A stretch of 64,000 nucleotides of DNA. It comes from Escherichia phage IrisVonRoten. Below the pieces are notes generated by a model. The model was not told the DNA's origin. It made no database searches and saw only the letters and a list, made by a program, of their open reading frames with translations. The stretch lies in the sequence record MZ501075. The stretch is one strand, 5' to 3'. The position numbers were made by a program, and so were the translations under genes. Of this stretch, positions 8,662 to 12,640 are shown in pieces; within the stretch, counting starts at the first letter, position 1, and each line of letters opens with the position of its first letter.

Positions 8662-10059
8662 ATGTCTTTACAACTATTACGTAATACTCGAATCTTCGTG
8701 TCTACGGTTAAGACTGGTCATAATAAGACCAACACGCAAGAGATTCTAGTTCAGGATGATATTTCTTGGGGTCAGGACAGTAACTCAACAGATATTACTG
8801 TTAATGAAGCTGGTCCGCGTCCAACTCGTGGTTCTAAACGTTTTAATGACTCTTTAAACGCGGCTGAGTGGAGTTTCTCTACTTACATCCTGCCCTATAT
8901 CAATAAAGATGATCAGAAGCAAATCGTTCCTGACTATATGTTATGGCATGCACTTTCTAGTGGTAAAGCTATTAACTTAGAAGGTAATACAGGGGCACAC
9001 AATAACGAAGCTAACTTCATGGTTAACTTCAAAGATAACTCCTACCATGAGTTAGCAATGTTACATATTTATATTCTGACTGATAAAGCATGGAGTTATA
9101 TCGATTCCTGTCAGATTAATCAGGCAGAAGTTAACGTTGATATCGAAGATATTGGCCGTGTAACTTGGTCTGGTAATGGTAATCAGCTCATTCCTCTGGA
9201 TGCGCAACCATTTGACCCAGATGAGTTAGGTATTGATGATGAAACTTATATGACTATCCAGGGTTCTTATATTAAGAACAAACTAACGATTTTGAAGATC
9301 AAAGACATGGATACCAATAAGTCTTATGATATTCCTATTACTGGTGGTACTTTCACTATTAATAACAACATCACGTACCTAACCCCGAATATTATGTCTC
9401 GTGTTAATATTCCAATTGGTTCATTTACTGGTGCTTTTGAATTAACTGGTTCATTAACTGCTTATCTGAATGATAAGTCTCTTGGTTCTATGGAGCTGTA
9501 TAAAGATCTTATCAAAACTCTGAAGGTAGTTAACCGCTTCGAAATTGCTCTAGTACTTGGTGGTGAATACGATGAAGAACGTCCTGCGGCTATTCTGGTA
9601 GCTAAACAAGCACACGTTAATACTCCTACTATTGAAACTGATGATGTACTTGGTACTTCAGTAGAGTTTAAAGCTATTCCATCTGATCTGGATGCTGGTG
9701 ACGAAGGTTACTTAGGCTTCTCTAGTAAATATACCAAAACAACTATTAATAACTTGATTGTTAATGGTGATGGTGCTACTAATGCTGTAACTGCAATTAC
9801 TGTTAAATCTGCTGGTGATGCTACTACAGTAAATAACTCGGCTACTCTTCAAATGAGTGTTGAAGTTACTCCTTCTTCCGCAAAGAATAAGGAAGTTACT
9901 TGGGCTATCACTGCCGGTGATGCAGCTACAATTGATCCAGAATCTGGCCTATTAACTGCGGACACCACTAAAACTGGTGAAGTAACTGTAGAAGCTACTG
10001 CTAAAGATGGTTCTGGAGTTAAAGGTACTAAACAGATTACTGTAACAGCAGGTGGCTAA
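8662..10059 (+). CDS. major tail tube protein (pb6-like) with C-terminal Ig-like (Big_2-type) domain
   Basis: 465 aa; C-terminal TWAITAGDAATIDPESGLLTADTTKTGEVTVEATAKDGSG resembles Big_2 Ig-like domain; size as T5 pb6. Confidence 0.75.
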   Translation: MSLQLLRNTRIFVSTVKTGHNKTNTQEILVQDDISWGQDSNSTDITVNEAGPRPTRGSKRFNDSLNAAEWSFSTYILPYINKDDQKQIVPDYMLWHALSSGKAINLEGNTGAHNNEANFMVNFKDNSYHELAMLHIYILTDKAWSYIDSCQINQAEVNVDIEDIGRVTWSGNGNQLIPLDAQPFDPDELGIDDETYMTIQGSYIKNKLTILKIKDMDTNKSYDIPITGGTFTINNNITYLTPNIMSRVNIPIGSFTGAFELTGSLTAYLNDKSLGSMELYKDLIKTLKVVNRFEIALVLGGEYDEERPAAILVAKQAHVNTPTIETDDVLGTSVEFKAIPSDLDAGDEGYLGFSSKYTKTTINNLIVNGDGATNAVTAITVKSAGDATTVNNSATLQMSVEVTPSSAKNKEVTWAITAGDAATIDPESGLLTADTTKTGEVTVEATAKDGSGVKGTKQITVTAGG

Positions 10060-10063
10060 TTAA

Positions 10064-10966
10064 ATGTACTACTCTCTAATGAGAGAGTCAAAAGTTATAG
10101 TTGAGTATGATGGTAGGGCATTTCATTTTGATGCCCTATCAAACTATGATGTACAAACCTCCTACGAAGAATTTAAGACTCTTCGTAGGACTATTCATCG
10201 TAGAACTAACTATGCAGACTCTATTATAAATGCTCAAACTCCTTCTTCTATCTCTCTAGCAGTAAATTTTAGTAATACGCTTACCGAAGCTAATTTCTTC
10301 GAATGGCTAGGTTTTGATAGAAAAGGTAATACTTTCTTACTACCACTATATAGTAACAATATTGAACCTATTATGTTTAATATCTATATAGTAAATAAAG
10401 ATAATAACTGTGTATATTTTGAGAACTGCTATGTATCTACTGTAGATTTTTCTTTGGATAAGAATATACCAATTCTTAACGTTGGTATTGAGTCAGGGAA
10501 ATTCTCCGAGGTATCTACATATAGAGAAGCAGCTTCTATTATACAAGGTGAAGCAATGTCTTATAGCCCGGTAATAGTTTCTACTAACGGTAGCATCTTA
10601 CCTGGCCTTATTTCCGCCTCTTTATCTTTTCAACAGCAATGCTCTTGGAGAGAAGATAAGAGTGTTTTTGATATAAATAAAATCTATAATAATAAAAGAG
10701 CCTATGTAAATGAAATGAATGCTTCAGCAACCATTTCTCTATATTACTTAAAACGTTTTGCTGGAGATATGGTTTACAATATCGAACCAGAGACCGATGT
10801 ACCTTTAAATATAAGAAATAATAATATTTCTATAGATTTTCCTTTAGCACGTATTACAAAACGCCTAGATTTCTCAGATGTGTATAAAGTTGAGTGGGAT
10901 ATTATACCTACTGCTTCTTCAGACCCAGTGAGAATAGATTTCTTTGGAGAAATTAAAAATGATTAA
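10064..10966 (+). CDS. tail-associated protein of unknown function (T5 p140-like)
   Basis: 300 aa; AT-rich codon usage; position between tube and chaperone genes. Confidence 0.3.
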   Translation: MYYSLMRESKVIVEYDGRAFHFDALSNYDVQTSYEEFKTLRRTIHRRTNYADSIINAQTPSSISLAVNFSNTLTEANFFEWLGFDRKGNTFLLPLYSNNIEPIMFNIYIVNKDNNCVYFENCYVSTVDFSLDKNIPILNVGIESGKFSEVSTYREAASIIQGEAMSYSPVIVSTNGSILPGLISASLSFQQQCSWREDKSVFDINKIYNNKRAYVNEMNASATISLYYLKRFAGDMVYNIEPETDVPLNIRNNNISIDFPLARITKRLDFSDVYKVEWDIIPTASSDPVRIDFFGEIKND

Positions 10967-11363
10967 TTTAAAAGATATTACTCTTGATACCCGCACTATT
11001 ACTCTTTCATACCCAGGTATGCCGAACTTTAAGCTAGAACTTAACTATATGTCTCGTGCTACCTCTAAACGTGTTATTTCTTCTGCTAAACGTGACGAAT
11101 GGGTTAATGGTACGCTGATACAAGTACAGGATGACGATAAGTTTATTGAAGCTTTCGTTGATGCTGCAATTAAAGGTTGGACTGGTTTGACTGTAGGCGA
11201 CGTTGAAAAGCTGATGCTGATTGAAACAGATGCTGATCCTACTACTGAAGTTCCATTTAGTCGTGATAATGCTGTAATGCTTATGCAGAACTCTGCTGCG
11301 TTTGATTCTTGGATCAACCAGACAGTGTTCCACCTCGACACTTTTCGTAGCTCAAAAGCGTAA
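10959..11363 (+). CDS. putative tape-measure chaperone (gpG-like)
   Basis: ~134 aa from ATG 10959 (track ORF begins at TTG 10944); position upstream of tape measure; overlaps next ORF in another frame. Confidence 0.35.
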   Translation: MINLKDITLDTRTITLSYPGMPNFKLELNYMSRATSKRVISSAKRDEWVNGTLIQVQDDDKFIEAFVDAAIKGWTGLTVGDVEKLMLIETDADPTTEVPFSRDNAVMLMQNSAAFDSWINQTVFHLDTFRSSKA

Positions 11364-11793
11364 AGAACTACTAGATGCTGTTGCTGATTTTGCCGATAAG
11401 TGTATTAAAAGCTCAGCATCTAAAATGACTAAACAACAATATTTAATACTTTGTGAGTCAATGGGTATAGAACCTGATCCTAAGGCTATGCCTGTTGAAC
11501 TTGAAGACTTTCCACCTATTGTAGCTATTAGTATGAATATTTATAATAGTCTAGTTGACTGTTTCATACCTGGTGACTTTCCTATATTTATAGGTAAAGA
11601 CAAAGCTGCTTTAGGTGTTTTATTTGATATTTATGGGATTACTGATCCTATAGAGAAAGAATTTGTTCTACACATTATCAATATATTTGATGCTAAAGCT
11701 GTAGATGCTGCACGTAAACGTGCTGAGAAGCATAAACCGCAAAACGGAAGGATTCCTAACGTTAAGCCACATGCTAGATCTCGTGCACGGTAA
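11302..11793 (+). CDS. putative tape-measure chaperone extension (gpT-like) or independent small tail protein
   Basis: 163-aa ORF opening in the +1 frame ~60 nt before the stop of the preceding ORF; no convincing own RBS at the TTG start. Confidence 0.3.
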   Translation: MILGSTRQCSTSTLFVAQKRKELLDAVADFADKCIKSSASKMTKQQYLILCESMGIEPDPKAMPVELEDFPPIVAISMNIYNSLVDCFIPGDFPIFIGKDKAALGVLFDIYGITDPIEKEFVLHIINIFDAKAVDAARKRAEKHKPQNGRIPNVKPHARSRAR

Positions 11794-11829
11794 AAGTTTC
11801 CTCCAATGGGGCGTTCCACGATGAGGCTT

Positions 11830-11861
11830 GGCTCTGGGTGATATGCCCAGAGCCTTTTTTA
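11830..11861 (+). terminator. rho-independent terminator
   Basis: GGCTCTGGG-7nt-CCCAGAGCC followed by TTTTTT. Confidence 0.65.
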
Positions 11862-11887
11862 TTTATAAACATATAGGTTGGTATAGT

Positions 11888-12640
11888 ATGGGAAAGAAGA
11901 TTACTAAACAGGATAGAGAGTCTCAGATAAGCAACATTTGCAATGATAAAAATTTATCCTTTGTTGGCTGGATAGGTGAGTACACTAATATTAAAAGCAC
12001 CCTTACACTTAAGTGTAATAAATGTTATTACACCTGGTCTCCTAGGTTGGATAACTTTTTACGGATTACTGCCCAAAAATGCCCTGCATGCGCAGGCAAA
12101 GCTAGATGGACGAAGGAAGAAAGAGAAGAACAAATAAAAAGTAAGTGTGCCGAGAAAGGATATAACTTTCTATCTTGGTCTTCCACCTATATTAATAAAG
12201 ATTCTAAGATTATACTTAAATGTTTAAAAGATGGTTGTATCTGGGATGTGTCTATACACCATTTTATTAATCACGATACAGGGTGTCCTGATTGTGCTTC
12301 AGGAGGATTTAATCCTAATATACCAGCTACTTTTTATATACAGAAATTAACGTATCAAGGGACTCACTTTCTAAAATTTGGGATCACTGGTAAGGATGTA
12401 CTAGAGAGAATGAGGCAGCAAAGCAATAAATCACTATGCGAGCACTCGGTAATTTTTTCTCATACTTTTTCTTATGGTTCTATGGCTAGGGGGCTAGAAA
12501 AAGTAGTAAAGGACTCAGTAAACACAGGAGTATTAGATAAACATATCCTTCCAGATGGGTACACCGAAACTTGTCACTACTCTGAGCTAGAAACTATACT
12601 ATCTTTAACTAATAGTTTTATACAGGAAAACATTAGATGA
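11888..12640 (+). CDS. putative homing endonuclease, T5orf172/GIY-YIG-like (paralog of 1971-2645)
   Basis: two N-terminal Cys-rich modules (KCPACAG, GCPDCAS) aligning with those of ORF 1971-2645; C-terminal FYIQKL..FLKFGITGKDVLERMRQ; inserted between chaperone genes and tape measure; stop overlaps tape measure start. Confidence 0.5.
   Translation: MGKKITKQDRESQISNICNDKNLSFVGWIGEYTNIKSTLTLKCNKCYYTWSPRLDNFLRITAQKCPACAGKARWTKEEREEQIKSKCAEKGYNFLSWSSTYINKDSKIILKCLKDGCIWDVSIHHFINHDTGCPDCASGGFNPNIPATFYIQKLTYQGTHFLKFGITGKDVLERMRQQSNKSLCEHSVIFSHTFSYGSMARGLEKVVKDSVNTGVLDKHILPDGYTETCHYSELETILSLTNSFIQENIR

Follow-up and report, generated by a model that had tools for sequence, protein, structure and literature searches.

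We have analysed a stretch of 64,000 nucleotides (nt) from Escherichia phage IrisVonRoten (sequence record MZ501075), referred to below as the window, and discuss here two overlapping open reading frames (ORFs), ORF1 and ORF2, which lie upstream of the tape measure gene and appear to encode the two parts of a tail assembly chaperone. The window comes from a T5-like phage (Tequintavirus), and its positions 10900-11900 match 441 phage records, all of them T5-like, with identities of 80-99%, Shigella phage SHSML-45 being the top match at 98.5%. We propose that ORF1 and ORF2 are joined by a +1 frameshift at the dicodon TTT CGT in their overlap. The features of the locus are given in Table 1.

Table 1. 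Features of the chaperone locus and its neighbourhood, with positions in the window (aa, amino acids; SD, Shine-Dalgarno)
Feature	Position	Strand	Basis or comment
Tail tube protein pb6	8662-10059		
Baseplate tube protein p140 homologue	10064-10966	+	Pfam PF23779 E 4e-140, PHROG 3889
ORF1, G-like tail assembly chaperone (T5.143 homologue), 134 aa, zero frame	10959-11363	+	ORF list, translation, PHROG 313
Minimal overlap window in T5-like phages	11338-11363	+	From first +1 codon after the TAG of most relatives to the ORF1 stop
Proposed +1 shift site UUU_CGU	11343-11348	+	Dicodon conserved in 51/51 +1 loci
+1-frame coding part, T-like domain, 148 aa	11347-11793	+	PHROG 3914 E 1e-56, PHROG 313 positions 170-258
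A-rich stretch CTCAAAAGCG, candidate A_AAA_G slip	11351-11360	+	Rejected as conserved site
Linker, ORF1 stop to first in-frame ATG, coding in the +1 frame	11364-11424	+	Variable-column and synonymous:nonsynonymous counts
ATG annotated as start of T5.142-type genes, without SD	11425-11427	+	Anti-SD duplex -0.1 kcal/mol
Intrinsic-terminator-like hairpin with T run	11830-11864	+	11-pair stem followed by TTTTTTATTT
Endonuclease, T5.141 homologue	11888-12640	+	Pfam CapR homology domain E 2e-24; PHROG 681 E 4e-68
Tape measure protein, pb2 homologue, 1219 aa	12637-16296	+	ORF list; annotated as tail length tape measure protein or Pb2 in T5 and relatives

The two reading frames

ORF1 runs from ATG 10959 to TAA 11361-11363, and its homologue in T5 (NC_005859) is annotated as a tail assembly chaperone. 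ORF2 lies in the +1 frame relative to ORF1 (11302 mod 3 is 1, and 10959 mod 3 is 0). It was listed mechanically as TTG 11302-11793, which gives a 62-nt overlap from TTG 11302 to the ORF1 stop, in agreement with the figure of about 60 nt in the initial annotation of this DNA, and the +1 frame is open over 11278-11793. The T-like part includes the homologue of T5.142, which is annotated from the ATG at 11425. TTG 11302 and the long overlap are restricted to this phage and a few loci that share its overlap sequence (L004, L030 and L088 in our numbering of loci). In all other T5-like loci fetched the +1 frame is interrupted by a TAG where the window has 11335-11337, which reduces the overlap to just 23 nt, and in 25 of 28 T5-like loci from IMG/VR the +1 frame opens 23 nt before the ORF1 stop. 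Variation within the 17-nt overlap is limited to one or two columns. Among them is the Y of GCY/YCA, where either base leaves the Ala of the +1 frame unchanged and frame 0 reads Ser or Pro.

The initial annotation saw no convincing ribosome-binding site for the second ORF, and our calculations bear this out, with anti-SD duplex energies of +0.2 kcal/mol at TTG 11302 and -0.1 kcal/mol at ATG 11425, as against -6.4 kcal/mol at the start of ORF1. Initiation at TTG 11302, inside ORF1, has in its favour that no start codon comes earlier in the open +1 frame of the window, but besides lacking an SD sequence the codon cannot serve in the other T5-like loci fetched, where the +1-frame TAG lies downstream of it, and we give this explanation hardly any weight.

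With regard to family, PHROG 313 ("tail assembly chaperone", 258 positions) is matched by ORF1 at positions 12-141 (E 3e-34) and by ORF2 at positions 170-258 (E 2e-17), and the two ORFs are therefore, by profile comparison, two halves of one tail-assembly-chaperone family. No Pfam family was found for ORF1 or ORF2, a profile of the predicted fusions found no match among PDB sequences, and when homologues of the predicted 277-aa fusion were sought none came up at E <= 1e-3. For ORF1, the AlphaFold2 model from the single sequence has a mean predicted local distance difference test score of 33.7, too low for use. For the T part a full HMMER scan was made of 1.84 billion cluster representatives. 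It gave 146 homologous representatives, all of 67-178 aa apart from two of 1455 and 554 aa, which we rejected as low-complexity artefacts. Leaving these two aside, no natural in-frame G-T fusion was seen among the 146. In-frame fusions therefore seem to be absent from the family, as expected if the ratio of the two products matters, and this fits selection for a ratio set by frameshifting.

The overlap across related phages

Comparison of the overlap across related phages, which had been suggested in the initial annotation, was carried out on 146 complete loci gathered from IMG/VR, from annotated phage records and from a metagenome scan. The annotated records are those of Klebsiella phages PWKp9S and Roth37, Serratia phage Kamaji, Vibrio phages pVp-1, Rocket24, JSF12 and D13, and Pectobacterium phage My1. 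The Serratia protein used as query in IMG/VR gave no match. The locus of Aeromonas phage AhSzq-1 (NC_047949, 89817-93638) was set aside, as its region homologous to ORF1 has numerous stop codons in every frame and hardly any annotation; the stops are likely to come from sequence errors, the record being described as a partial genome.

In all 146 complete loci the downstream ORF and the ORF1 stop overlap, in the +1 register in 51 loci and in the -1 register in 95, and this is far beyond chance. The initial annotation described the +1 register as unusual. The downstream frame is indeed +1, but this is not peculiar to IrisVonRoten, and from the genomes compared the +1 register is the rule in every cultured Demerecviridae phage that could be read, be it T5-like or a phage of Klebsiella, Serratia, Pectobacterium or Vibrio.

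All 51 loci of the +1 register have an in-frame TTT CGT (45 loci) or TTT CGA (6 loci) in the overlap, at 11343-11348 in the window. It is the sole feature common to all of the +1 overlap windows, and the TTT C at 11343-11346 is invariant. In My1 and Vibrio phage D13, ORF1 ends right after the CGT and a +1-frame stop is two codons ahead of the TTT, so that both frames are open over 11 nt only, [TCC or AAC] TTT CGT TAA. A shift must therefore be confined to these nucleotides, where UUU to UUC is the only re-pairing possible.

The -1 loci have a different motif at the homologous position, where 92 of the 95 carry an XXXYYYZ heptamer: G_GGA_AAC in 58, A_AAT_TTT in 28, and A_AAT_TTC and T_TTG_GGA in 3 each, with some of the T_TTG_GGA loci continuing with lambda's own G_GGA_AAG. 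The three loci that lack a heptamer are metagenomic (L124, L125 and L154) and carry C_AAT_TTT or G_TCT_TTT, on which only the A-site tRNA-Phe can re-pair. No canonical -1 heptamer is present in 11338-11363 of the window.

The zero-frame tail of ORF1 after the Phe-Arg encoded by the dicodon has from 0 to 11 residues and its sequence varies across the family. The +1 peptide right after the Phe is alike in the enterobacterial phages (VAQKRK, VVQNRN, VQSSRN and VNSSTN), and the predicted fusions of both registers align collinearly through the junction. How far the ORF1 stop lies from the TTT differs from phage to phage (6 to 39 nt), for which reason a shift stimulated by the stop codon was rejected. 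There is also a +1-frame stop exactly two codons before the TTT in nearly all loci of the +1 register (L003-L030, L057-L063 and that of My1, L085). In the relatives it is read across a conserved Leu/Ile-Asp (xTA GAC), where the window has CTC GAC and no stop. This stop may be a selected guard against premature shifting, or it may be a by-product of codon choice.

The initial annotation pointed to an A-rich stretch next to the ORF1 stop. CTCAAAAGCG is indeed there, directly before the TAA, and tRNA-Lys is a well-known shifty tRNA. A +1 shift from AAA 11355-11357 to AAG 11356-11358, giving ...TFRSSK-RKELL..., would have good re-pairing and would produce a fusion of the same length as the slip on UUU_C, and the T5-like loci all share TCA/CCA AAA GCG. 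However that invariance is explained by dual coding, and outside the T5-like phages the stretch is not conserved as a slip element: the Klebsiella phages have T or C after the AAA, with loss of the re-pairing, the Serratia phage has ATC AAG, and in the Vibrio phages and My1 the stretch is missing, ORF1 of My1 and of D13 ending before it would be reached. We think a slip at this place very unlikely.

A -2 shift would reach the same frame as a +1 shift, and so would slippage of RNA polymerase in the T or A run with one base deleted or two inserted. The one joined coding sequence on record, in Salmonella phage Shivani (see below), has a span that fits either +1 or -2. However, the two bases 5' of the UUU vary (CU, CC, CA, AC, GG, GA) and re-pairing of tRNA-Phe two bases back is not conserved, which makes a -2 shift unlikely, and the homopolymer runs are merely 3-4 nt, known sites of transcriptional slippage being longer runs. 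Taken together we see even less chance for these mechanisms than for a slip on the A-rich stretch.

The other question is whether the +1 frame is translated ahead of ATG 11425. In 29 T5-like sequences the 60-nt linker has 20 variable columns, distributed 5/1/14 over the codon positions of the +1 frame, which equals the pattern in the undisputed coding sequence on both sides. From the slip site to ATG 11425 (78 nt) there are 18 nucleotide haplotypes, which encode 3 peptides. Synonymous:nonsynonymous differences in the +1 frame are 10:3 for the window and the T5-like locus L023, 9:1 for two Klebsiella phages and 10:3 for Vibrio phages pVp-1 and Rocket24, as against 0-1:9-11 in the two other frames for the same three pairs. 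Most T5-like loci have no ATG, GTG or TTG in the +1 frame between its opening and ATG 11425. Translation of the +1 frame upstream of ATG 11425 is thereby supported in three lineages.

These counts bear directly on the explanation that there is no recoding, that ORF2 is an independent gene whose product is a free 122-aa protein made from ATG 11425, and that the open +1 frame upstream is incidental. This is how T5 RefSeq and most records have it, as separate genes; ATG 11425 is kept in all T5-like loci, and gene callers begin many homologues at this Met. Recombinant T5.142 made from the annotated ATG is moreover folded, soluble and active as a defence trigger, in that it binds and activates the Schlafen tRNase RorSlfn5, in a 2026 study that mentions no frameshift (PMC13056530). 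Escape mutations from RorSlfn5 map to T5.142 (D18G, D68G and I72T; PMC13056530), and D18 falls in a conserved EPDP motif. Against independence, the ATG has no SD sequence, and the Met, which is also kept in My1, Vibrio D13 and most loci of the -1 clade, gives way to Ile, Val or Phe in the Klebsiella, Serratia and most Vibrio phages. Further, the 60 nt ahead of the ATG are constrained in the +1 frame in three lineages, the frame overlaps the ORF1 stop in every locus, and the sister clade has canonical -1 heptamers. We regard a wholly independent ORF2 as improbable, although of the alternatives it is the one we take most seriously. A free ORF2 product could be made in addition to the fusion.

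The proposed slip and what weighs against it

Our comparison makes it very likely that ORF1 and ORF2 are joined by recoding, and we put at roughly three in four the probability that the joining event is the specific slip from UUU to UUC at 11343-11346. The suggestion in the initial annotation of a gpG/gpGT type of frameshift is well supported in its essentials, by the two PHROG 313 halves, the constrained linker without a start codon and the -1 heptamers of distant relatives. That the shift is ribosomal, that it takes place on UUU_C and is inefficient, and what the fusion does, we infer.

On this proposal most ribosomes would end at TAA 11361 and give the 134-aa G-like chaperone, and a minority would shift +1 with peptidyl-tRNA-Phe on UUU 11343-11345. 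The tRNA-Phe would re-pair to the overlapping UUC at 11344-11346, C11346 being in effect skipped, and decoding would resume in the ORF2 frame at GUA 11347-11349. The product would be a 277-aa GT-like fusion, ...NQTVFHLDTF-VAQKRKELL...SRAR, with DNAVMLMQNSAAFDSWINQTVFHLDTFVAQK as its predicted tryptic junction peptide. By analogy with lambda the G part would bind the tape measure protein and the T part recruit the tail tube protein, and a low frequency of slipping would set the G:GT ratio. A low, unstimulated efficiency would suit a ratio of this type.

Codon context in the phage's own genes was counted in the 45 ORFs of the window of 150 aa or more. A pyrimidine-initial codon follows TTT in 76 of 391 cases (19%) and TTC in 143 of 277 (52%; Fisher p = 4e-18), and TTT CGT is found 3 times where 8.3 are expected. 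The +1-prone UUU_Y context is avoided genome-wide, and TTT CGT has therefore been kept at the slip site against the trend of the genome. Schwartz and Curran, in Nucleic Acids Res in 1997, are said to have measured +1 shifting at UUU/C-CGG/U dicodons in E. coli. Bacterial UUU_Ynn is described as +1-prone, and UCC_UUU_CGU is the minimal cassette for the +1 shift of influenza A PA-X (PMC5009743).

There are several points that weigh against the proposed slip. The A-site codon, CGT, encodes more of the Arg residues in the ORFs of the window than any other codon does (369 of 780), and the usual stimulator, a slow A site, is therefore not evident. No SD-like stimulator was found upstream of the slip site in the window, and no conserved or unusually stable structure downstream of it when 72 nt were folded for six phages (z-scores -1.45 to +0.9). 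An Rfam search of 10900-11950 gave no match at E <= 1. Conservation of the Phe-Arg could also, in principle, reflect a need of the ORF1 protein itself. The literature searched gave no experimental evidence of a fusion product in any T5-like phage, and according to a remark in a genome announcement that cites a T5 morphogenesis study the T5 tape measure chaperone lacks a predicted frameshift signal (PMC6256483). The solubility and activity of T5.142 on its own mean that a free-standing ORF2 product is physically viable. Finally, internal initiation could add a second product in phages PWKp9S, Kamaji and D13.

The last point relates to SD-like sequences downstream of the slip site. In Klebsiella PWKp9S and Serratia Kamaji there is an AAGGAG or GGGAG, arising from the conserved peptide T-K/R-E-Q-Y, at 9-14 nt ahead of a downstream in-frame ATG, with pairing energies of -6.6 and -7.7 kcal/mol respectively. 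Vibrio D13 has SD-like pairing of -6.4 kcal/mol ahead of an in-frame ATG, and Klebsiella Roth37 is without an SD-like element.

Neighbouring genes, known systems and the two registers

The gene order of T5 is kept in the window: pb6, p140, ORF1/ORF2, hairpin, endonuclease and tape measure. The chaperone pair is thus between the tail tube genes and the tape measure gene, as the initial annotation had it in placing the pair upstream of the latter, but it is not adjacent to it, since the hairpin and an inserted endonuclease gene intervene. The end of the p140 gene (stop 10964-10966) and the start of ORF1 share 8 nt, 10959-10966, and this overlap suggests that the chaperone is translationally coupled to the baseplate tube gene. 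The hairpin, a strong one, directly follows the chaperone ORFs and is kept in relatives without the endonuclease, and T5 has an annotated putative rho-independent terminator at the equivalent position. The endonuclease also has a treble-clef zinc finger, and its stop overlaps the ATG of the tape measure gene at 12637-12640. The endonuclease gene looks like a mobile insertion between the chaperone and tape measure genes, because DNA similarity to most relatives ends at window position 11863. No tRNA genes were found within the window.

The closest parallel is gpG/gpGT of lambda, with the conserved tail chaperone frameshift of long-tailed phages generally, in which, as those studies are reported in PMC5009743, there are likewise overlapping ORFs upstream of the tape measure gene, the second without a start of its own, and with assembly chaperones as the expected products (Levin 1993; Xu, Hendrix and Duda 2004). 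The sister clade has G_GGA_AAC, and even the G_GGA_AAG of lambda, at the homologous position. The proposed site differs from that of lambda in being +1 and not -1, with no XXXYYYZ heptamer and a P-site slip of a single tRNA on UUU_C, and the locus differs in having a baseplate tube gene upstream and a hairpin and endonuclease gene separating the pair from the tape measure gene.

In the case of +1 sites, influenza A PA-X (PMC5009743) has the same core, UUU_CGU, with tRNA-Phe slipping to UUC. My1 has the full UCC UUU CGU, but it is the only one with TCC, the window having ACT, and the E-site codon is not conserved among the +1 loci (ACU, ACC, UCA, AAC, GGG, CGA). The other differences from PA-X are that the ribosome is bacterial, CGU is not rare, and the genes and their origins are unrelated. 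Bacterial UUU_Ynn sites, including that of Yersinia YopN-TyeA (PMC5009743), resemble the proposed one in having UUU and a pyrimidine, no adjacent stop, and a low-level fusion of adjacent genes, whereas here the site is kept across a phage family, with identity between fusions down to about 25%, and takes the place of a canonical -1 site. The haloarchaeal myovirus HSTV-2 has a G-T chaperone pair thought to need a +1 shift (PMC5009743), but its host is archaeal, its sequence is unrelated and its site is not tied to UUU_CGN in that paper. E. coli prfB, for RF2, shares the one-base 3' slippage in the P site, but its site is CUU_UGA, in which the A-site codon is a stop, and it is stimulated by an SD-like sequence upstream, where we find a sense CGT and no SD-like run.

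With regard to earlier annotation, T5 RefSeq has T5.143 and T5.142 as separate genes, the latter from the ATG equivalent to 11425, and most other records inspected also have two genes. The sole joined coding sequence among the records inspected is in Salmonella phage Shivani (KP143763), and its span of 832 nt fits only a +1 or a -2 join. The seven possible Shivani fusion sequences, one per +1 junction, were looked up and none was found. The literature searched, in which the T5 morphogenesis study (Zivanovic 2014) is represented second-hand, holds no description of a +1 chaperone frameshift in T5, Tequintavirus or Demerecviridae. That literature seems not to describe the slip site, how it is conserved across the family or how it relates to the -1 clade, the idea of a join being already present in the Shivani record.

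In a neighbour-joining tree of the predicted fusions, clustered at 80% identity (44 clusters), there are two clades, which match the +1 and -1 registers. The +1 clade comprises the T5-like, Klebsiella, My1 and Serratia phages, four Vibrio lineages and two environmental lineages, and the -1 clade environmental contigs only. As the registers coincide with two clades, one change of register suffices. The slip sites of both clades are at the homologous codon, and AAC TTT TCG AAG of the -1 clade, downstream of G_GGA_AAC, is one T apart from AAC TTT CGA of the +1 clade. A single-base indel of T beside the heptamer probably interconverted the registers, in either direction, on the evidence of these alignments. 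Such an indel would alter the fusion at the junction only, from N-L-F-E to N-F-E.

Putting these elements together, we lean, by a small margin, towards the view that all sampled cultured Demerecviridae lineages slip +1 on UUU_CGN to make a GT-like chaperone, that this register arose once from a lambda-like -1 site, or gave rise to it, through a single T indel, with the shiftiness of UUU_C rescuing the fusion, and that T5.142 occurs in infected cells mainly as the C-terminal domain of a T5.143-142 fusion of low abundance.

The known recoding system of the G/GT chaperones would then be present in a new, +1, form. With a conserved +1 site, hundreds of Demerecviridae genomes, that of the model phage T5 among them, would need a corrected annotation, and a 277-aa protein would be defined. 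As a case of recoding, this would be a bacterial +1 site that is deeply conserved and has no stop codon, SD stimulator or evident structure, and the sister clades with +1 and -1 shifts at the same codon would amount to a natural experiment in which the direction of recoding was flipped by a one-base indel. If the proposal is true, the species sensed by the Schlafen defence may be a rare 31-kDa fusion and not a free 14-kDa protein, which would change our view of what that defence senses and at what dose.

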